DNA from: an uncultured Candidatus Bathyarchaeia archaeon
Lineage (GTDB): Archaea > Thermoproteota > Bathyarchaeia > Bathyarchaeales > Bathyarchaeaceae
DNA: 46,958 bases
NCBI GenBank assembly: GCA_964347855.1
Contig: CAYGAE010000002.1
Location: 1 to 46,958, forward strand
Direction: 5' to 3'
Shown: positions 21,151 through 29,157 of the stretch, piece by piece
Position numbering within the stretch: the stretch's first letter is position 1
Layout: every line of letters begins with the position of its first letter
Notes under the pieces: generated by a model
The model's input: the letters and a program-made list of their open reading frames with translations, nothing else
Told to the model about the DNA's origin: nothing
The model's database searches: none
Position numbers and translations under genes: made by a program

Positions 21151-22497
21151 CTATTGAGCTTCGGCGCAAATATAGTTCCTTTTCTGGATGTCCAGTGGGC
21201 ATCCTCCTCCGCAGATTTGGAGGTGCGTACAGTCCTTGCACTTTGCTTCTACGTATTCTCTATTTCTTATCTGCACCGCAAGGGGGTGATCCCAGATTTC
21301 TTGCCAATCATCCTTGAGGATGTGACCAAGGCTCTCAAAGTAGCTTTGACAAGGATAAACGTCGCCATTTGGCCCAACGCACATGTTGATCTTTGCCGCT
21401 GTGCACGATTTGACGCCTAGACCTAATCTAACGGGATCGAAGTGGCAATATTGGGTTGGAGTGTACCATAGAAACTTTAGTCCCAGCTGGTTTGCTTTTT
21501 CATGAATTTTGGGCAAAAGCTCTTTCAGGGTCTCGAGGGGTAGGATGAACTCCTCGGTTATCTGGTTGGCTTTTCCTGAGTAGATGAGACTGTTGCAGCC
21601 AAAGGCGGCAACCCCGAGTTCCTTTAGGAAGTCTATGGTTTCCATGAAATCTTGGGCATTGTATCTGCTAAGAGTGGTATTTGTGGTGGCGTAGATCTGC
21701 GTTGGGATGATGTTCTTGATTCCAGCGACAGTTTCTTTCCAGCTTCCTTTGGTTGCTGTCATTAAGTCGTGGATTTTGGGCTTATGGGATTCCAGGGTCA
21801 CCTGAACAAAGTCTAATCCTGTCTTCTCAAGGAGGTCAACGTAGGTTTTGTCTTTCAATCTTCTGCCGTTGGTTATGAGCCCGGTGACCATGCCCTTCTT
21901 TTGTCCGTAGAGCAGGAGTTCTGGCAAGTCTTCACGGAGTGTTGGTTCGCCTCCGGTGAAGTCTAATATGAACACGCCAATCTGATGAAGGCGATCGATG
22001 ACTTCTTTCCATTGTTCTGTGGCAAGCTCGGAGGTTTCGTGGGGTCCGCCGGCGTAGCAGTGGATACAATTGTTCTGGCATCTGAAAGTGAGTGCCAAAT
22101 CCATGCGTAGCGGAGCTGACAGCTGCTGGGTGAAGGGGTCCACTTGCTTTACGTCGAGAAAGGATATTGGGCAGACTTCCTCAGTCTGTGCCAACGTGCT
22201 TACTGTGTAAATCAACCGCTCGTAGTCATTCGTCACCGTCTCCCTGTTCACTCGATACAGGCGCCTGATTTTATCGACGGCTTCGCGGGTCGTCATGCCT
22301 TGCATAAAGAAGAAGGCGTGTGCTGTGGCTGTCTCGTTTAAATACAGAACCGTATTGGCGTTAACCACTAATAAACCCTGACCATCTGGCTCCACACGAA
22401 GCTGAAGAGCCAAACCCTCGAAATCACCAGTTCCTCGATAAGTATATCGACCTCGAGGAATCTTAGATGCTCGAAACACCTTGCGCAGAAAGCTCAT
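21151..22497 (-). CDS. radical SAM/SPASM maturase with N-terminal PqqD-like RiPP recognition element
   Basis: 448 aa. Residues ~40-105 (LLVVNANTVLYLNETATAHAFFFMQGMTTREAVDKIRRLYRV...DYERLIY) match the PqqD/RRE pattern. rSAM motif CQNNCIHCY. C-terminal SPASM cysteines CTAAK..C...PC...CKDCTHLQICGGGCP. Confidence 0.9.
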   Translation of the reverse strand: MSFLRKVFRASKIPRGRYTYRGTGDFEGLALQLRVEPDGQGLLVVNANTVLYLNETATAHAFFFMQGMTTREAVDKIRRLYRVNRETVTNDYERLIYTVSTLAQTEEVCPISFLDVKQVDPFTQQLSAPLRMDLALTFRCQNNCIHCYAGGPHETSELATEQWKEVIDRLHQIGVFILDFTGGEPTLREDLPELLLYGQKKGMVTGLITNGRRLKDKTYVDLLEKTGLDFVQVTLESHKPKIHDLMTATKGSWKETVAGIKNIIPTQIYATTNTTLSRYNAQDFMETIDFLKELGVAAFGCNSLIYSGKANQITEEFILPLETLKELLPKIHEKANQLGLKFLWYTPTQYCHFDPVRLGLGVKSCTAAKINMCVGPNGDVYPCQSYFESLGHILKDDWQEIWDHPLAVQIRNREYVEAKCKDCTHLQICGGGCPLDIQKRNYICAEAQ

Positions 22498-22516
22498 AAC
22501 TACCGGCTACCTCCTC

Positions 22517-24145
22517 TCATCCCACCCCTCCACCAGCACAAGCGCAAGCACATGAGACACAAGCACAGGCGCACGCGCAAGCCGCGCACGCACAGACGCA
22601 GCCGGATCGATGGTGGGCGGGTTGTGTAGAGGATTTTGCCGCTGGTGTTCGCACAATGGCGCTAGCGAATTTTTCGAGGTTTGTAACAATTCTGTTTGAG
22701 GTGTTTTCTACTGCGGTTGCTATGTTGTTTGCGAAGTCTGCGCCAGGAATTGTGGGGGGTTTTGCCGCTTTGGTGGGTGCCGTTACGTTTGGTTCATACG
22801 TGGGTTTGGGGTGGTAGTGCCGATAGCTGTACCAGTACCACAGCCAAAAGGGGCTCGGCTCAAAAGCCAGGTCGCGGAACACTGTTCTAGTGCGCGACTG
22901 ATAGTTGGGGTCAAGGAAGAGCCACAGCAATTGTTCGTCATAGGCTTTCGAGGCTAATGCGGGTGTGCCCGCTTTCTCGACTTGTGCCCAAGCTTTCGCC
23001 ACGATCTTTCGGTAGTAGTCGGTTGTGTCGCGGCGGCAGTATCCACGCAGTTTTTCTTCAACTGTATGTCGGAGGAACCGCATTGTTTGTGCCAGCTTCT
23101 CTTCGTCGAGGGTTCCATCTGCCTTAATGGCGTGGAGAAAGTCGATTTCGTAGTAACGGAGGGATATCTCAGGCGTCCCAGTCTTGTTCTCGAATGCTTG
23201 CATGATTTTCAGTTTGAACTTGGGAGTGGTTGACTTGACCCATATGGCTCTCTTCTTCAAGAGACTGTACATGATTTCTGTGACTATTCTTGTTGGCTTT
23301 AAGTCGAGGAGGTATGATGCCTCGACGGCTGTAAAGCCGTGCCTGATTCCAAGGGTTTCCATGCTGAGTGTGGGCGTCAGATATGGTTTCTTGCGGATCA
23401 CATAGACAACGGCCCCGATTGCTCCGATGGATATTCCAAGTATCAAGAGGGCAGGTCCATATTGCTGAAAAAAGGCGACTATACCGGTGGGCTCTGTCTC
23501 GTAACTCTTTACATACTCCTTGGGAAAAGAAACTCCAAAAGTGTACCTCTGATTGGGCGAAAGCTCTCGTCTCTGCCAGAATACTGACAATCGGTCTTCC
23601 TCTGGATACGTGCCGTTCCAGAGCTCTTGTGTGGTCGTTACGTTTTCGGTGGTTACGCCAGGAGGCAACACAATCTGTACTTGAAGGTCGAGCACTCTTG
23701 CTTCTTCCCACCAAGTTGGTATGAACTCCATACCAACGTTGTCCGGTGTGTCTTCGTATATCATGCGGGAAACGTTTGTCGTAAGGTTGAATCTGACAGT
23801 CTGCCCTGCTACTAAAGGCTCGTAAAGGCGAACCTGCACCCTGTAATCGCTTCCAGAGCTCGCGTCGGTGGCCACAAGCATGTGGCCATACTGGTCCATA
23901 GCAGTTACTATTTCGAAGCCTCCCTTAGGTTGACCAACATAAACGAAATTTATGAGGTCGCCGGAATCGAGTGCTATACTGATGTCGTAAAGCAAATCGA
24001 TGGTTCCATCTTGGTTTATCCATATCTTCGCCCATTCATGTTCTAGATGATACTCTCCCTCCCACTGTGCTGCTGCAGTGCCCATAAATGTCAATGAAAG
24101 AACCATGGCCGACACTGCGACCAGCAAAATAGGGTGCTTCACCAT
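22517..24145 (-). CDS. DUF2207-like membrane protein with C-terminal (Cys-Ala)n tail
   Basis: 542 aa: signal peptide, extracytoplasmic beta-rich domain, one TM (ALLILGISIGAIGAVVYVI), a cytoplasmic helical region and an aromatic patch (PFWLWYWYSYRHYH). The terminal sequence is SGCVCACAACACACACVSCACACAGGGVG. The DUF2207 resemblance is from memory. Confidence 0.7.
   Translation of the reverse strand: MVKHPILLVAVSAMVLSLTFMGTAAAQWEGEYHLEHEWAKIWINQDGTIDLLYDISIALDSGDLINFVYVGQPKGGFEIVTAMDQYGHMLVATDASSGSDYRVQVRLYEPLVAGQTVRFNLTTNVSRMIYEDTPDNVGMEFIPTWWEEARVLDLQVQIVLPPGVTTENVTTTQELWNGTYPEEDRLSVFWQRRELSPNQRYTFGVSFPKEYVKSYETEPTGIVAFFQQYGPALLILGISIGAIGAVVYVIRKKPYLTPTLSMETLGIRHGFTAVEASYLLDLKPTRIVTEIMYSLLKKRAIWVKSTTPKFKLKIMQAFENKTGTPEISLRYYEIDFLHAIKADGTLDEEKLAQTMRFLRHTVEEKLRGYCRRDTTDYYRKIVAKAWAQVEKAGTPALASKAYDEQLLWLFLDPNYQSRTRTVFRDLAFEPSPFWLWYWYSYRHYHPKPTYEPNVTAPTKAAKPPTIPGADFANNIATAVENTSNRIVTNLEKFASAIVRTPAAKSSTQPAHHRSGCVCACAACACACACVSCACACAGGGVG
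22535..22600 (-). repeat. coding quasi-repeat (TGY-GCN)n encoding the Cys-Ala tail
   Basis: Codon-by-codon reading of the minus strand gives CVCACAACACACACVSCACACA. It is an imperfect hexanucleotide periodicity inside the CDS. Confidence 0.9.
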
Positions 24146-24477
24146 TTTGGTTCCTCGGCTACTTCAAATGTTTGTCCACAATAGGGACATGTAGCATACG
24201 GGACGCCAGAAACGATTTTGATCTGTTTGGCATCTATGGAAGCCGAACAGTTGGGACATTTGAGCGAAACAGCTTTCATCGGTCCTGATAGTTCCAACCT
24301 CTGGATTATCGTCTTCGGCTTTCTGGTTATATAGTAGACTATTCCAAACCCTACAGCAAACAATAAGGCGGCAACGATTAATCTTGTAGGTGCATAAACT
24401 GAAGCTAGAGCAAATATGATCCCGAAGAAGAAAAGAACGGCAACAGCAATTGCGCCTAGCACTATTTTGAGGTTCAC
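24139..24477 (-). CDS. two-TM membrane protein with C-terminal zinc ribbon
   Basis: 112 aa: two hydrophobic helices, then CPNC...(19)...CPYC. Its stop overlaps the next gene's start (ATGGTGA, 24139-24145). Confidence 0.65.
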   Translation of the reverse strand: MNLKIVLGAIAVAVLFFFGIIFALASVYAPTRLIVAALLFAVGFGIVYYITRKPKTIIQRLELSGPMKAVSLKCPNCSASIDAKQIKIVSGVPYATCPYCGQTFEVAEEPKW

Positions 24478-24647: not shown

Positions 24648-26690
24648 ATGTTGATCCGGGAGGTTATCCTAGAAAATTTCATGTCCTACGAATATGCTAG
24701 GATACCCTTTAAACCGGGAGTCAACATTATCTGCGGACCCAACGGCTCAGGCAAATCCTCCATGCTTCTCGGAATCTCTGTGGCACTAGGCCAATCTTAC
24801 ACAGAAAGATCGAAGAAACTGAGCGATCTCATCCGGTGGGGAAAGGACCAAGCGCGTGTTACGGTTGTCCTAGACAACTCCAATAGAAATGGGCATCGAC
24901 CAGTTAGAAGGATCAATAAAGACTACATTTATCTGACGCGAATTTTGAGGCGGGACGGAAAATACTGGTTCGAACTCGAAAACAGGGCTGCGACAAAGAG
25001 TGAGGTCAACAGACTTCTCTCAAAGTTTGGAGTAGATCCAGACAACATGCTTATTATCATGCACCAAAACATGGTTGAACAATTCACGGTACTCCCTTTT
25101 CAAGAAAAACTGAGAATGGTTGAAGCTGCTGTAGGACTGGAATCCTACCGCCAAAACGTACTCATGGCTCAACGCAAACTAACACGCATCTTAAGCCAAG
25201 AGGAATCCGTGAATAAGCTTCTAGAGTCTGCTGAGCAAACCCTAACATACTGGAGAGAACAGTACGACCGCTACCAAGAGAAAAAACAACTAAAAATGAA
25301 ACGCCGCTTTCTGGACAGAGAATTGGCATGGGCTGAAGCTGGAAAAGTCCAGAAAACGGTCAACACCCTCAAAGAACAGATCGGAAAGAGACAGAACGAA
25401 ATACAAGAAATCGAAAACAGCGTAGAAGCCACCAACGGCGAGTTAGACAAGCTTCAGACAAAGCTAGCGCAGTCAAAGACCGAGTGGAGAAAACTCCTCG
25501 AAGAACTGCTTACACTGGAACGCGCAAAGGGAAGACACGAGTCACACCTTTCGTTGGTTAATCAAACCCTGAAAGAAACGCAATCTTGGGCGGCGATTCA
25601 TCAAAAAGAAACCAAAGAACACCTAGAGAAGATAGAACTACTAAGAACCAGCCTCCCTGGCAGTAACCCATCCGGGCTCAAACCTCCCTTCACAGAGATC
25701 AAAACGGCCTACGAGAATCTTGAGAAATCGTGGACCCAACGGTTTAACCTTAAAACCCAAGACCTAGAAGAATCCATCAAAGACTCGCAGCAAAGACTCG
25801 GAAAACTGGAAGCCGGAACCTCAGAAGCCAGAGAGAAGACTGATCACCTAGACTCAGAGATAGAAGGAATAAACAGCAACCTGGTGAGCCACAAGATTAA
25901 CCTAGCCCTACTGGAGTATCGAAGAGAAAGCCTGACTAGAGCCGTGAAAAAACTAGACAAGGAACTTCAAGCCTCCCTAACCGACCTTGACGAGGCAATC
26001 AGAAGAGCCCAGGACACGGGACCACAATTAGTGCCCATGAAGAGCATAGCGGAGATTTTAGATGAGATTCGTGTAACTGACGGCCATCTCGCAGCCTTGG
26101 CAGACGTTTCCGAAGACATCGAACGCATGTACGAGAAATATTCCAAACTGTACTTGGAGCTAAAAGAGAAAGCTCGCCAAGTTGCTGAAAACCGAGAAAA
26201 AGCCTTAGAAGAAGTAAAAACAAGGATGAACGCCTGGAGAACAGTCATTCAAAACCTCCTAGACCACATCAACATCCAGTATCAAGGAATCCTCTGGAAC
26301 GCCCAAGCAGTCGGTGACGTTCGGTTACTAAACGGACATGACATCGAAGCGGCGGGCCTACAGATTTTTGTAGGCTTTAGAGGATCGAAACCCGTTCCCC
26401 TCAACGCCTACACGCAGAGTGGCGGAGAAAGAAGCACTGCAACCATGGCCTTTCTTCTGGCACTTCAGCAGCACGTTCAATCCCCCTTCAGAGCCGTTGA
26501 TGAATATGACATCCATATGGACCCAAGAAACAGGGAAATAATCGCCGATCTTCTTGTTTCTTCTGTTGAAGGGACAGTCGCCCAGTACCTAGCCATCACG
26601 CCGAGCCAGATAACCTTCTCTGGAAAGGACGTCCACATCATCACAGTACAAAACGTTGAAGGGACAGCGCTGGTAAAAGAGGTAGCATGA
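24648..26690 (+). CDS. SMC-like ABC ATPase, short-armed and hinge-less (SMC5/6-like / archaeal SMC-related protein)
   Basis: 680 aa. N-terminal LENFMSY...GPNGSGKSS (Walker A). ~500 aa of heptad-rich charged sequence is interrupted near the midpoint by PGSNPSGLKPP. C-terminal signature QSGGERS and Walker B FRAVDEYDIHMD. Confidence 0.85.
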   Translation: MLIREVILENFMSYEYARIPFKPGVNIICGPNGSGKSSMLLGISVALGQSYTERSKKLSDLIRWGKDQARVTVVLDNSNRNGHRPVRRINKDYIYLTRILRRDGKYWFELENRAATKSEVNRLLSKFGVDPDNMLIIMHQNMVEQFTVLPFQEKLRMVEAAVGLESYRQNVLMAQRKLTRILSQEESVNKLLESAEQTLTYWREQYDRYQEKKQLKMKRRFLDRELAWAEAGKVQKTVNTLKEQIGKRQNEIQEIENSVEATNGELDKLQTKLAQSKTEWRKLLEELLTLERAKGRHESHLSLVNQTLKETQSWAAIHQKETKEHLEKIELLRTSLPGSNPSGLKPPFTEIKTAYENLEKSWTQRFNLKTQDLEESIKDSQQRLGKLEAGTSEAREKTDHLDSEIEGINSNLVSHKINLALLEYRRESLTRAVKKLDKELQASLTDLDEAIRRAQDTGPQLVPMKSIAEILDEIRVTDGHLAALADVSEDIERMYEKYSKLYLELKEKARQVAENREKALEEVKTRMNAWRTVIQNLLDHINIQYQGILWNAQAVGDVRLLNGHDIEAAGLQIFVGFRGSKPVPLNAYTQSGGERSTATMAFLLALQQHVQSPFRAVDEYDIHMDPRNREIIADLLVSSVEGTVAQYLAITPSQITFSGKDVHIITVQNVEGTALVKEVA

Positions 26691-27509
26691 TTGGCTTCCA
26701 AGAAACAGAGAAAAATACTCGGCAGTGAACATCTCAAACGCATCATCGATCTATGTAAGTCCGTTGAGGAGAGAGGTCTTGACCCCTTCCTAGTAGAGGT
26801 TGATGACATAATCGCTGTTATTCGAGAGTATTTTTCTGATTGGAAGTCGCCTGAAGAGCTTTGTTTAGACGCTGAAACCGTCCACAAGCTGGCGTCTGTT
26901 ATTAAACTTCAAAGTGACTGGGTCAAGCACAGATCGACTTCCCTCTACACAGATCCCTTTCTTCTCGAGGAGAAGACACAAAAACTAAGCAGGGAAGCCT
27001 TTACCACACTGTTTCTTAAATGTTGGCATCCAATCATCGAATTAGAGCAAATATCCTCTCACAGTCTCGCTCAGGCTATCAAATACTGGCAAGACCTCCT
27101 CCCGTTGAAAGAACGATGGTTGAATTTCTCCGCTCAAGAGATAGAAACTGGAGCCACAACTCGTGACGAGCTTATCAAGTTGGGAATTATTGGGGCGAGG
27201 GCTTTTTCGGAGGATTTAGAAGTCCTTTGGGAGGAGTTGAAGCACAGGGTCGGCGAGGAAGGTAAAATTCGATACTGGGACTTTGTTGGGGCCGACACTT
27301 ATTCCAGCACGATAAGACGGGCTTTCCTGACAAGCTTTCTAATAACATACGGGTATGCCACCTTGGAAGTACATCGGCTAGAAGAGGAGACCTTTATCAA
27401 ACCCTTCGAAAAGCCGGTATCCTTTCAACAGAAAAAACAAGTGATCTCCATTCCCGTCTCCATAAGCCTTGAAGACTGGATGAGATGGAAGGAGGATAAG
27501 CAGAATTGA
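26691..27509 (+). CDS. kleisin-like (ScpA-like) partner of the SMC-like ATPase
   Basis: 272 aa with a TTG start directly after the SMC stop. The N-terminal GLDPFLVEVDDIIAVIREYF resembles the ScpA N-terminal helix region. The C-terminal RRAFLTSFLITYGYATLEVHRLEEETFIKPF resembles the kleisin C-terminal winged helix. Confidence 0.55.
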   Translation: MASKKQRKILGSEHLKRIIDLCKSVEERGLDPFLVEVDDIIAVIREYFSDWKSPEELCLDAETVHKLASVIKLQSDWVKHRSTSLYTDPFLLEEKTQKLSREAFTTLFLKCWHPIIELEQISSHSLAQAIKYWQDLLPLKERWLNFSAQEIETGATTRDELIKLGIIGARAFSEDLEVLWEELKHRVGEEGKIRYWDFVGADTYSSTIRRAFLTSFLITYGYATLEVHRLEEETFIKPFEKPVSFQQKKQVISIPVSISLEDWMRWKEDKQN

Positions 27510-27777: not shown

Positions 27778-27817
27778 ACCATAATTATGATTGCTTACAT
27801 CAAATTCGGGATCCACA

Positions 27818-28285
27818 ATGCGCGAATGTTCTCCCAATGAAACTAATGAGAAACACAATGTAGATAATCTCTATCTCTGTTATCAGTGTGGAACCTGCAG
27901 TGGTGGATGTCCAGTCACCAGATTGGTCCCTGAATACAATATCAGAAAGATTGTCAAACTCAGAAAAGAAAACAGGATCGATGTTAGAAGTAGATTTCTT
28001 TGGTACTGCCTGACTTGTTATATATGTTATGAGCGATGTCCTCAAGGGGTCAAACCAATCGAAGTCATCCATTCTGTCACAAATTTTGTATCGAGAAATG
28101 GATTTGCCCCCTCATCTCTGAAGGAAGGTAATAAGAAAATCCTAGCTGTAGGTCGCAGTAGTGACCTCACCAAATTCACTGAACAAAAACGAGGAAAATT
28201 GGGGCTGCCAGAATTGAAAATAGATGTATCAAAGGACTTTAAAGAAATTTCTAAAATGACAGGGTTGGCAGAGATGATTCAATGA
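27818..28285 (+). CDS. hdrC: heterodisulfide reductase subunit C-like (2x[4Fe-4S])
   Basis: CYQCGTCSGGCP and CLTCYICYERCP ferredoxin motifs. The ATG at 27818 is preferred over the track start at 27791. ATGA overlap with hdrB. Confidence 0.8.
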   Translation: MRECSPNETNEKHNVDNLYLCYQCGTCSGGCPVTRLVPEYNIRKIVKLRKENRIDVRSRFLWYCLTCYICYERCPQGVKPIEVIHSVTNFVSRNGFAPSSLKEGNKKILAVGRSSDLTKFTEQKRGKLGLPELKIDVSKDFKEISKMTGLAEMIQ

Positions 28286-29157
28286 ACCTTACATTATTCC
28301 TTGGATGCAATATTCCAACCCAAGTCTTCAACTATGAAGCCTCAGTCAGGAGAATTGCAGCCGCCTTTGGGATCAAGCTCAAAGATAACGTGGAGTTTGG
28401 TTGTTGCGGTGAGCTTACAGAAGCCATAGATTATTACACATCTCTCGTTTTTTCTGCAAGGAATATTGCCCTGGCAGAGAAGGAAGAGCAAGACATCTTA
28501 ACCTTGTGTAACGGATGTTTCTCTTCATTGAACAAAGCGATTTTCGCGCTAAATGATCCTCACTTGAGAAGCAGAGTCAACGAAGCCCTAAAAAAAATAG
28601 ATCTCTCCTACAAGGGGAAATCGCGCGTGTTTCACTTTCACCAACTGATGTACGATATCGTTGGACCTTCAAAGATTAAGGAAAAGATAGTTTTAAATTT
28701 GAACAATGTATCAGTTTCCTGCCATAACGGCTGCCACATCCTCAGACCAAGCGATGTTCTTGGATTCGACGATCCCCAAAATCCGAAGAAACTCGAAGAA
28801 CTTGTGGGATTGACAGGAGCTAAAATCGTTAAGCCAATAGGAATCGAACAATGCTGCGGATCGGTTCTGTCACTCTGTGATCTAGACGCCGCCCAATCAC
28901 TGGCAATAGAGTCTATTGAAAGAAAAGGCGAAGTGGATGCAATAGTGGTCGGTTGCCCTTTTTGTTTCAAACAATTTGATATGGGGCAAGTCGTCGCCAG
29001 AAAGAAATTCAACAAAGAATTAAGCATTCCCATACTCTTTTACGCCGAACTTCTTGGGCTGGCTCTCGGACTTAGACCAGAAGATCTTGGACTTAACATT
29101 GTCCATAAGATACGCACAGACGGGTTCTTGGAGAAGTTGGGGGTTTCTAATGGGTAG
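28282..29157 (+). CDS. hdrB: heterodisulfide reductase subunit B-like (two CCG domains)
   Basis: 291 aa. FGCCGE and EQCCGS with the associated CxxC/CPFC cysteines are typical of CCG domains. Confidence 0.85.
   Translation: MNLTLFLGCNIPTQVFNYEASVRRIAAAFGIKLKDNVEFGCCGELTEAIDYYTSLVFSARNIALAEKEEQDILTLCNGCFSSLNKAIFALNDPHLRSRVNEALKKIDLSYKGKSRVFHFHQLMYDIVGPSKIKEKIVLNLNNVSVSCHNGCHILRPSDVLGFDDPQNPKKLEELVGLTGAKIVKPIGIEQCCGSVLSLCDLDAAQSLAIESIERKGEVDAIVVGCPFCFKQFDMGQVVARKKFNKELSIPILFYAELLGLALGLRPEDLGLNIVHKIRTDGFLEKLGVSNG

Follow-up and report, generated by a model that had tools for sequence, protein, structure and literature searches.

Radical S-adenosylmethionine (SAM) enzymes that carry a RiPP recognition element (RRE; RiPP, a peptide made on ribosomes and then post-translationally modified) and a SPASM domain have been investigated almost exclusively for the small secreted peptides that they make. 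The locus described here raises the question of what such an enzyme acts upon when the gene beside it encodes a large membrane protein. The stretch of DNA that was analysed (the window; 46,958 nt, G+C content ∼45%) is a Bathyarchaeia contig, in which three genes on the minus strand encode a small zinc-ribbon membrane protein (gene 1), a type-I membrane protein that ends in alternating cysteine and alanine residues (gene 2) and an RRE-radical SAM-SPASM enzyme (gene 3). An initial annotation of the window proposed that the Cys-Ala tail of the full-size membrane protein is the partner and probable substrate of the enzyme. This proposal was supported by every comparative test that we ran: the tail was kept in homologs, the enzyme gene was adjacent, and the pair persisted where the layout of the genes was rearranged. 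We consider it probable that genes 2 and 3 represent a conserved enzyme-substrate module, in which the RRE-radical SAM enzyme modifies the cytoplasmic (Cys-Ala)n-Gly3 tail and the product stays on the protein.

The C-terminal sequence of the gene 2 protein is SGCVCACAACACACACVSCACACAGGGVG, exactly as it had first been read, and its conservation goes far beyond chance. Among the best 120 relatives of the protein (67–100% identity), 118 retained all ten cysteines in the pattern CVCACAxCACxCACVSCACACA[GS]GGVG, and one of the two exceptions, P0073, had an obvious frameshift through the tail. The family comprises more than 1500 proteins, and an exhaustive search of representatives clustered at 50% identity gave 567 matches. 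In the best 150 of these representatives, every complete protein had a Cys-Ala block and then GGG at its end, including those at 28–35% identity, while the tail-less sequences were either contig-end fragments or proteins that shared the ectodomain only. The possibility that homologs usually lack the tail, which the initial annotation had raised against its own proposal, was thus answered in favor of the tail down to ∼28% identity. The distant homologs carried a version with 7–10 cysteines, and the motif persisted to ∼25–30% protein identity in Bathyarchaeia, other Thermoproteota, Methanocellales, Chloroflexota, Zixibacteria and Cloacimonadota. It took the form ...GGGG-CACACACAGCACACAGGGR in bacteria and CACACACVSCACACACAGGGGCT in Methanocellales, while the Thermoproteota form had 10 cysteines.

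To describe the tail at the codon level, we used the best 80 loci from a scan of GTDB with one genome per species, which yielded more than 237 relatives. Over the 19 codons that span the common core, each Cys and Ala column was identical in 79–80 of the 80 species. The codons themselves were freely mixed, with TGC and TGT for Cys and all four GCN codons for Ala, and the pairwise codon differences amounted to 32254 synonymous versus 5961 non-synonymous changes, the latter being concentrated at three variable positions. Since the residues are fixed while the synonymous codons are scrambled, the Cys and Ala residues are under purifying selection at the protein level; no other part of the gene 2 protein is as conserved as the tail. 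The heterogeneous codons and the saturated synonymous changes also dismissed the idea that the tail is a DNA-repeat or microsatellite artefact. In P0073 and at L069:5884-7611, the Cys-Ala block is read out of frame (...AYALAHPAPVYARAYRALALV and ...RMRVRLRGMCLRLCGRR, respectively). These are probably assembly or sequencing frameshifts in a GC-rich, repeat-like stretch, or else pseudogenes.

Conservation extended to the gene neighborhood. The 80 loci were from Bathyarchaeia, other Thermoproteota, Methanocella, a 'Thermococci' metagenome-assembled genome, many Anaerolineae and Chloroflexia, Herpetosiphon, Zixibacteria, Cloacimonadota, a deltaproteobacterium and Edwardsbacteria. A radical SAM match was located directly downstream of the tail gene and on the same strand in 70 of them, and the zinc-ribbon gene was located immediately upstream in 67, which bore out the conservation of the triad that the initial annotation had suggested to look for. 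The radical SAM orthologs scored 370–870 bits against the window enzyme, six copies being split or cut short by a contig end. In the remaining loci, an inactive paralog of the enzyme was adjacent in four, the radical SAM gene was nearby but elsewhere in two, and none was seen in four, in one of which the contig ends right after the tail gene. All-against-all clustering of the genes around the 80 loci returned only three conserved families; neither a protease of the leader peptidase kind nor an exporter was conserved with the module. Pairwise identities of the carrier protein (with the tail removed) and of the radical SAM enzyme correlated with r = 0.94 over 58 loci. This fits joint inheritance of the two genes, with shared phylogeny also contributing to the value.

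The reverse search, with a profile of the radical SAM orthologs that made no reference to the tail, retrieved 120 proteins. Four of these were followed to six loci (three of them near-duplicates), and a tail gene ending in CACACAGCACACAGGGR was located upstream of the enzyme gene in all six. A gene with the end EEPKW precedes it in five, and the sixth contig begins inside the tail gene. In two of the six, from an Anaerolineae lineage, an inserted IS200-like (Y1_Tnp) transposase gene separates the tail gene from the radical SAM gene (L082:3487-4017 and L083:317-847). This test is narrow, all four proteins being from an Anaerolineae-type clade. The enzyme was nowhere found beside a different short peptide in these look-ups, an arrangement that had been named beforehand as one that would speak against the proposal. 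Likewise, the reported absence of a free-standing precursor gene was confirmed, with one Cys-Ala motif per locus and no free-standing short peptide carrying it in the window or in the 80 genome loci. The motif always resided on proteins of 330–770 amino acids, in contrast to the short precursors (fewer than ∼100 amino acids) of RiPP systems. The sole short open reading frame (ORF) with the motif is a 19-residue match, L127, with no radical SAM gene nearby, and it is probably due to chance.

Further layouts were revealed by a scan of metagenomes for DNA encoding CACACAGGG, which delivered 80 loci with 85 motif matches, four of them chance matches in GC-rich frames. The window-type layout was represented by 40 ORFs with a terminal tail on proteins of 540–720 amino acids; the radical SAM gene was downstream within 3 kb in 32 of these, and the flank was truncated in the other eight. 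A variant tail, CACACA-G-CACACACA-GGGR, was present in 10 ORFs, frequently in tandem paralogs; the gene order, in so far as the upstream region was visible, was zinc-ribbon gene (in L114 only), radical SAM gene, radical SAM-like gene and tail protein gene or genes. At L157:248-8968, L114:4365-10207, L141:1-4561, L094, L105 and L108, one or two tandem tail proteins of 586–724 amino acids end in CACACAGCACACACAGGGR, with the Cys-Ala units split 3+4 instead of 4+3. Class II, a second class of carrier, consisted of 30 ORFs of 330–425 amino acids with the motif ...C[AV]SSCACACACACAGGG[RG]AGC[ST].K[DN][FL]Y followed by 15–30 residues. It can also be written ...CACACACACAGGG[RG]AGCS.K[DN][FL]Y, and it occurs at L165:2839-5447, L144:9733-12143, L135:258-2648 and L162, with ∼30 such loci among L088–L167; L162 is a contig of a human-gut metagenome. 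The class II proteins have a signal peptide, a DUF2207-N-like ectodomain (17–38 bits to the window protein), one transmembrane helix and a Gly-rich linker; in the 30 ORFs, the cytoplasmic helical domain was absent and no zinc-ribbon gene was seen. In all 19 class II loci with a visible upstream flank, a radical SAM/SPASM gene was located upstream on the same strand, immediately so in most, and neither this enzyme nor its carrier belongs to a curated family.

Nowhere in the metagenome scan did we find a motif gene with flanks of at least 2.5 kb on both sides but without a radical SAM gene, nor a convincing free-standing short peptide with the motif. Six loci that at first seemed to lack the enzyme (L090, L092, L121, L133, L140 and L164) were rejected as exceptions, as the radical SAM gene was found 0.56–1.8 kb downstream of the tail gene, behind an intervening sequence. 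What all layouts share is only a type-I membrane protein whose cytoplasmic end carries a block of at least three Cys-Ala units plus Gly3, together with a radical SAM/SPASM enzyme. The fact that the pairing survives an inverted gene order and a changed carrier is the strongest comparative evidence available for a direct functional relationship. The number of Cys-Ala units and the pattern of their interruptions differ between the layouts (4+3, 3+4, contiguous and 3+4+3), and the Cys-Ala repeat next to GGG is therefore probably the recognition unit, instead of a fixed hairpin. A fixed 4+3 hairpin was accordingly rejected as the defining feature. A gramicidin-like β-helix of alternating D- and L-residues in a single register is not favored either, since Cys and Ala change register at the Gly or Val-Ser interruption and the class II interruptions follow a different pattern. 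The tail is hydrophobic on the Kyte-Doolittle scale, but we rejected it as a transmembrane anchor: the bacterial block has 15 residues, is flanked by Gly/Ser/Arg-rich sequence and is predicted to be disordered. In P0266 and P0308, an extra domain of ∼90 residues follows the Cys-Ala block (...GGGFCFRLRKGMK...), and the motif therefore need not be positioned at the extreme C-terminus.

On the enzyme side, the radical SAM motif C140QNNC144IHC147Y and the C-terminal SPASM cysteine cluster, both noted at the outset, were verified by matches to Radical_SAM (PF04055, 9e-24) and SPASM (PF13186, 4e-10) and by conservation of the cysteines in orthologs. The seven SPASM cysteines, which suffice for two auxiliary [4Fe-4S] clusters, were kept in 98–100% of 63 orthologs. 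The closest sequence match in the PDB was SkfB (3e-20 over residues 19–412), and in Foldseek searches SkfB again ranked first (1.5e-16), followed by SuiB, PqqE and CteB; all four are RRE-bearing peptide cross-linkers. Gene 3 is nevertheless not a member of any curated maturase family (SkfB, AlbA, StsB, PapB, SCIFF and others), and it scored below every NCBIfam equivalog cut-off by a factor of 3–10, as did the bacterial and class II enzymes. The PqqD-type RRE assigned in the initial annotation stood up at the level of the family. PqqD (PF05402) was matched by 24 of 25 N-terminal domains, at best with 1.6e-7, and the N-domain family profile matched two RRE proteins of lasso-peptide systems, TfuB1 with 4.7e-5 and TbiB1 only weakly (E 0.2). 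In addition, the AlphaFold2 (AF2) model of gene 3 had a three-strand, three-helix RRE fold at residues 30–104.

What the RRE might bind is suggested by the architecture of the gene 2 protein, the AF2 model of which was built on an alignment of 38 sequences (mean predicted local distance difference test [pLDDT] score 82.5). The single transmembrane helix is followed by RKKPY, and by the positive-inside rule the C-terminal half of the protein is therefore placed in the cytoplasm; tail and enzyme are both predicted to be cytoplasmic. Conserved columns in the cytoplasmic helical domain include Y332/E333, T374, Y378, W386 and W408. Closer to the C-terminus, a segment with the consensus lPGadFAa.ivtgve.fs.nivgnv..Ft..vt in 76 proteins from both domains of life precedes the tail by 20–45 residues, with a variable Gly/Ser/Arg or polar linker in between (residues 499–515 in the window protein). 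This succession of conserved segment, variable linker and Cys block is the layout expected of a recognition sequence plus core, and the pre-tail segment is a candidate 'leader-like' recognition sequence for the RRE. The C-terminal end of the protein (residues 503–542) was disordered in the model, with pLDDT values below 50 in the tail. The features of the three proteins are listed in the table.

Table. Features of the three-gene operon in the window, and inactive radical SAM-like paralogs at other loci (locus:coordinates)
Feature	Position	Strand	Evidence
Gene 1, 112-aa zinc-ribbon membrane protein	24139..24477	-	ORF, GTG start
Gene 2, 542-aa type-I membrane protein with (Cys-Ala)n tail	22517..24145	-	ORF
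Signal peptide or N-terminal anchor, residues 1-26	24068..24145	-	Hydrophobic segment to AAA|Q; AF2 helix 5-23
Extracellular β-sandwich, DUF2207-N-like and ribophorin-I/Ost1-like, residues 31-208	23522..24055	-	pLDDT >90
Single transmembrane helix, residues 222-250, then RKKPY	23396..23482	-	Hydrophobicity and AF2
Cytoplasmic helical/winged-helix-like domain, residues 273-422	22880..23329	-	AF2, pLDDT mostly 88-97
Pre-tail segment PGADFANNIATAVENTSNRIVTNLEKFASAIV, residues 467-498	22652..22747	-	Conserved; AF2 helices 468-486 and 490-497
Tail CVCACAACACACACVSCACACAGGGVG, residues 516-542, putative modification site	22520..22600	-	Homolog and codon conservation
Intergenic spacer gaggaggtagccggtagtt with ribosome-binding-site-like GAGGAGG, gene 2 stop to gene 3 start	22498..22516	-	19 nt
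Gene 3, 448-aa RRE-radical SAM-SPASM enzyme	21151..22497	-	ORF and Pfam
RRE, PqqD-like winged helix, residues ∼16-104	22186..22452	-	Family profile and AF2
CX3CX2C radical SAM cluster motif, C140, C144, C147	22057..22080	-	Invariant in 63/63 orthologs
SPASM domain, Cys 351, 365, 383, 420, 423, 429, 433	21199..21447	-	Pfam and ortholog alignment
Inactive paralog genes	L052:10671-11855; L073:7599-8849; L062:7584-8837; L080:5804-6958; L086:6461-7618		

The following sequence of events can be envisaged. The RRE would bind the conserved segment ∼20–45 residues upstream of the tail (residues 467–498), and the flexible linker would feed the Cys-Ala repeat into the active site, where 5′-deoxyadenosyl-radical chemistry would act iteratively on the CA units. 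The modified tail would remain on the membrane protein instead of being released as a natural product. The products could be several intramolecular thioethers that join the Cys sulfur to the α- or β-carbon of the invariant Ala (sactionine or ranthionine type), and the result would be a metal-binding cage or a rigid knot that withstands proteases and redox changes. We infer that the tail is the substrate, which of its residues react, and that the product stays attached. Multiple thioethers from Cys sulfur to Ala carbon are the favored chemistry, though only tentatively and by analogy, because characterized RRE-SPASM enzymes that act on Cys-rich cores mostly form thioethers, because the best full-length match of gene 3 is a sactisynthase, and because Ala is as constrained as Cys. 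An unlikely alternative that we take seriously is that the same pair performs another reaction, such as oxidation of Cys to formylglycine or a dehydro residue (as by anaerobic sulfatase-maturating enzymes, anSMEs), Cα epimerization of Ala or Cys (as by YydG, EpeE or PoyD), C-C cross-linking or the turning of the thiols into a new protein-derived cofactor. The core fold of gene 3 also resembles anSME (4k37, 9e-11) and EpeE (8ai1, 1e-8), its sequence is equally far from the heme-modifying NirJ/Ahb enzymes, PqqE and MftC, and a strict two-residue alternation would suit epimerization or another modification of each unit. The usual thioether chemistry of RRE-SPASM enzymes and the match to SkfB speak against these reactions; moreover, the tail lacks the anSME motif C/S-x-P/A-x-R, and anSMEs lack an RRE.

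Several observations weigh against modification of the tail by the enzyme. The window enzyme, taken alone, scored only 16.9 bits against PqqD, below the Pfam threshold of 23.4. A few tail genes had no active radical SAM gene beside them: L049 had none within 3–6 kb on either side, L067 and L077 had none on a shorter view, and at L062, L064 and L080 only the inactive paralog was next to the tail gene. The real exceptions to adjacency number one to three. Because the tail motif served as the seed of the genome scan, tail-less homologs cannot appear in it; the proposed modification itself draws on sequence comparison and structure prediction. Lastly, invariant Ala would also be expected of a flat β-sheet face, as in silk-like (X-Ala)n packing, and is thus not specific for a cross-link acceptor, and CXC repeats are a classic metal-thiolate motif.

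The two last points lead to a different view, in which the tail is an unmodified, metallothionein-like ligand for metal or an Fe-S cluster, and the enzyme is linked to it in another way. The tail could then be a membrane dock, a donor of clusters or sulfur, or a regulator, with a lipid or small molecule as the true substrate. CXC repeats do bind metals, an extended strand would put all thiols on one face, the core of the enzyme resembles the archaeal lipid enzyme GDGT-MAS (7tol), and there are the few loci without an active radical SAM gene beside the tail. We nonetheless judge this view improbable. The X of a metal-binding CXC repeat is normally free to vary and needs no dedicated enzyme, whereas here Ala is as invariant as Cys and a radical SAM gene is linked; a peptide-binding RRE is present, even in the inactive paralog; and the pairing is kept in three gene orders and with two carrier architectures, as is typical of an enzyme and its substrate. 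Slightly less probable still is a released RiPP with the tail as its core, the 510-residue protein as a giant leader or scaffold and the peptide being cut off for export or retained as a small cofactor: the C-terminal motif, flexible linker and upstream conserved segment do mimic leader-core logic, large leaders and carriers are known (NHLP/Nif11 leaders, methyltransferase-fused borosins) and the cassette of one locus, L087, includes an M28 peptidase, but the module has no conserved protease or transporter, the carrier is strongly conserved and co-evolves with the enzyme, the operon resides among housekeeping genes, and 15–90 further residues follow the motif in class II, P0266 and P0308. The lack of a conserved protease or exporter and the housekeeping-type neighbors, in a position conserved throughout the lineage, argue against a secreted natural product in general.

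Chloroflexota cassettes usually carry a second radical SAM-like gene of 380–420 codons. Its product retains the RRE (with a PqqD match) and part of the barrel, but has lost the CX3CX2C motif and all SPASM cysteines. The gene is usually 1.3–3 kb downstream, and directly after the tail gene in four loci. Since the RRE is kept on a cluster-less paralog within the cassette, the N-terminal domain arguably binds something encoded in the cassette, and the inactive paralog may be a chaperone or regulator for the same target. Other genes in these cassettes include a 340-amino-acid protein with a C-terminal transmembrane helix, encoded between the active and inactive radical SAM genes in Anaerolineae (L086:5430-6452, L082:5531-6568 and L087:6826-7857). 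Its precomputed Pfam label, PF27233 MJ0711_N, was not reproduced in our own Pfam scan. A UbiE-type methyltransferase was frequent (23 loci), and at L073:9924-11549 (minus strand) a 541-amino-acid active radical SAM/SPASM protein encoded near the tail gene has a C-terminal Gly/Cys-rich extension of its own (...GGGCSGCSGSCGTGG...).

The zinc-ribbon protein had been regarded as a third component of the system, and this is correct in so far as its gene is common. It is not universal: the gene was missing from the non-Bathyarchaeal Thermoproteota and Methanocella among the 80 genome loci, and in Methanooceanicella nereidis a different two-helix membrane protein takes its position, with the tail gene overlapping the start of the radical SAM gene by 4 nt. 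The gene 1 product has two transmembrane helices (hydrophobic segment 1–52, followed by RKPK), a cytoplasmic CxxC...CxYC zinc ribbon and a C-terminal EEP[KT]W; Pfam and NCBIfam returned weak zinc-ribbon matches. Positions C74, C77, C97, Y99, C100, E108, E109, P110 and W112 were invariant in 15 orthologs. The EEP[KT]W-COOH end (24139–24165 in the window) is invariant in Archaea and Bacteria and, from its sequence, looks like a short docking motif. We regard the protein as a frequent accessory outside the universal core, which may be a membrane-tethered partner or an electron-transfer adaptor.

As for the carrier, searches with the 542-amino-acid protein in Pfam, NCBIfam and the PDB assigned it to no curated family, and no NCBIfam match was obtained for the bacterial, Methanocella-type or class II carriers. 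The DUF2207 label suggested for it in the initial annotation fared only partly well. The window protein itself had no DUF2207 match (hmmscan, E ≤0.1), whereas among 38 relatives there were weak matches to PF09972 in two and to PF20990 in four, and the Methanooceanicella ortholog reached 23.9 bits over the full N-domain profile of PF09972 against a threshold of 24.4; the fold is compatible with the label. By Foldseek, the ectodomain matched RPN1 (8pn9_E, 4e-11) as well as the N-domains of M1 aminopeptidases and LTA4H (root-mean-square deviation 3.5–5.8 Å over ∼205 columns). Because of these fold matches and of an ortholog that is half a bit short of the DUF2207 N-domain threshold, we describe the carrier as a divergent DUF2207/ribophorin-like type-I membrane protein. 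The ortholog (L208:5001-6692; GCA_021023085.1, contig PGCK01000005.1, around 88.9–100.6 kb) belongs to M. nereidis CWC-04, apparently a strain in culture, to go by the style of its name. RefSeq names it 'dolichyl-diphosphooligosaccharide--protein glycosyltransferase subunit 1', and UniRef names it DUF2207. Its sequence match to Ribophorin_I had an E-value of only 0.083, while the fold search of the carrier also ranked ribophorin I/Ost1 at the top. A link between DUF2207 proteins and subunit 1 of the oligosaccharyltransferase is possible. The juxtamembrane region gave a weak match to TIGR04222 (E 0.23); membrane proteins of the TIGR04222 type end in Gly/Cys-rich low-complexity tails.

Within the window, the order of the three genes, their coordinates and both junctions were as first read. 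The start of gene 2 and the stop of gene 1 share 7 nt, ATGGTGA at 24145–24139 (AAA-TGG-TGA/ATG-GTG-AAG), and the gap between genes 2 and 3 has its GGAGG ahead of the ATG at 22497. Below the operon are a convergent gene for an Lrp/MarR-type regulator and genes for a methyladenine glycosylase, a major facilitator superfamily transporter and an HtrA-like protease. Above it are a divergent gene for a 680-amino-acid SMC/Rad50-type ATPase followed by one for a 272-amino-acid protein without a Pfam match (24648–27509), and then genes for Hdr-like Fe-S proteins, one with a 4Fe-4S dicluster and one with a CCG domain (HdrB-like) (27791–29157). None of these four upstream neighbors was kept with the triad in other lineages. 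Because the flanking genes are unrelated and of a housekeeping type, the three genes represent a self-contained operon. A role in anti-phage defence was dismissed, as PADLOC gave no match for the proteins of genes 1 and 2 and only generic radical SAM/viperin-core matches for gene 3 (pVip models, residues 134–289).

No Pfam or NCBIfam model of this system was found, nor was a published description in a literature search that covered few subscription journals, a scope that makes a prior description possible. The nearest known systems are the sactisynthases and other RRE-radical SAM maturases (SkfB, AlbA, CteB, SuiB and PqqE), which have the same order of RRE, radical SAM and SPASM (or twitch) domains, gave the best sequence and structure matches, and likewise have a Cys-rich partner encoded by an adjacent gene. 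In sactipeptides, there are known cases of sactionine links to Ala. However, gene 3 is far below the cut-offs of these families (SkfB 88 versus 300, AlbA 79 versus 850), and their partners are peptides of 30–60 amino acids, not a 542-amino-acid membrane protein without leader protease or exporter. Moreover, bacteriocin clusters are patchy, whereas the present module, like a housekeeping gene, is kept throughout lineages in two domains of life. Judged by sequence, the system thus resembles sactipeptide or ranthipeptide maturation without two RiPP hallmarks, the short free precursor and the apparatus for release or export. Radical SAM/SPASM enzymes paired with substrates of short Cys-containing repeats, a pairing that implies iterative modification, are known from the ACGX-repeat system (TIGR04340 rSAM_ACGX), His-Xaa-Ser, the CX3D repeats of PapB and the three-residue cyclophane formers. 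Gene 3 matched TIGR04340 with 4.2e-21, but with 75.5 bits against a cut-off of 400, and the ACGX-type substrates are free peptides of ∼50 amino acids with ACGX, not CA, as the unit.

A precedent for radical SAM/SPASM-made thioethers that stay in a functional protein is QhpD, which installs Cys-to-Asp/Glu thioethers in the small subunit (QhpC) of quinohemoprotein amine dehydrogenase. QhpC is a soluble periplasmic protein of ∼80–110 amino acids in which the cross-links build the active site, whereas here the target would be a repetitive tail on a large membrane protein. The anSME/sulfatase pair is a conceptual precedent for modification of a protein by a radical SAM enzyme, and differs in the sulfatase-type motif and the RRE as outlined above. 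Borosins and NHLP/Nif11 precursors also carry a short C-terminal core on a large protein, but they are served by methyltransferases or other enzymes, their cores are cut from the protein and released, and a membrane protein with a radical SAM partner is not among them. The DUF2207/ribophorin-I-like type-I proteins share the ectodomain fold and topology of the carrier, with sub-threshold sequence matches, and our literature search found nothing that links DUF2207 with a radical SAM partner or a fixed Cys-Ala motif.

It is conceivable, if rather doubtful as a whole, that this is a widespread and probably ancient system of Archaea and Bacteria, including a human-gut metagenome variant, in which a RiPP-type maturase has been recruited for housekeeping and turns the tail of ribophorin/DUF2207-like proteins into a poly-thioether ladder or a metal- or redox-active cofactor. 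The carriers belong to uncultured, globally abundant sediment lineages (Bathyarchaeia, Anaerolineae) and to methanogens, with the shorter variant in a human-gut metagenome, and genome-mining tools built around short precursors would skip them. If the proposed modification is true, it would add a new class of protein-borne radical SAM modification to a few precedents, QhpC and the sulfatases among them, offer a first way into the function of the large DUF2207-like family, and provide in CACACAGGG a minimal, highly repetitive substrate for iterative radical cross-linking. Compared with the known systems, what is new here is the kind of substrate and its biological setting, and what is familiar is the class of enzyme.

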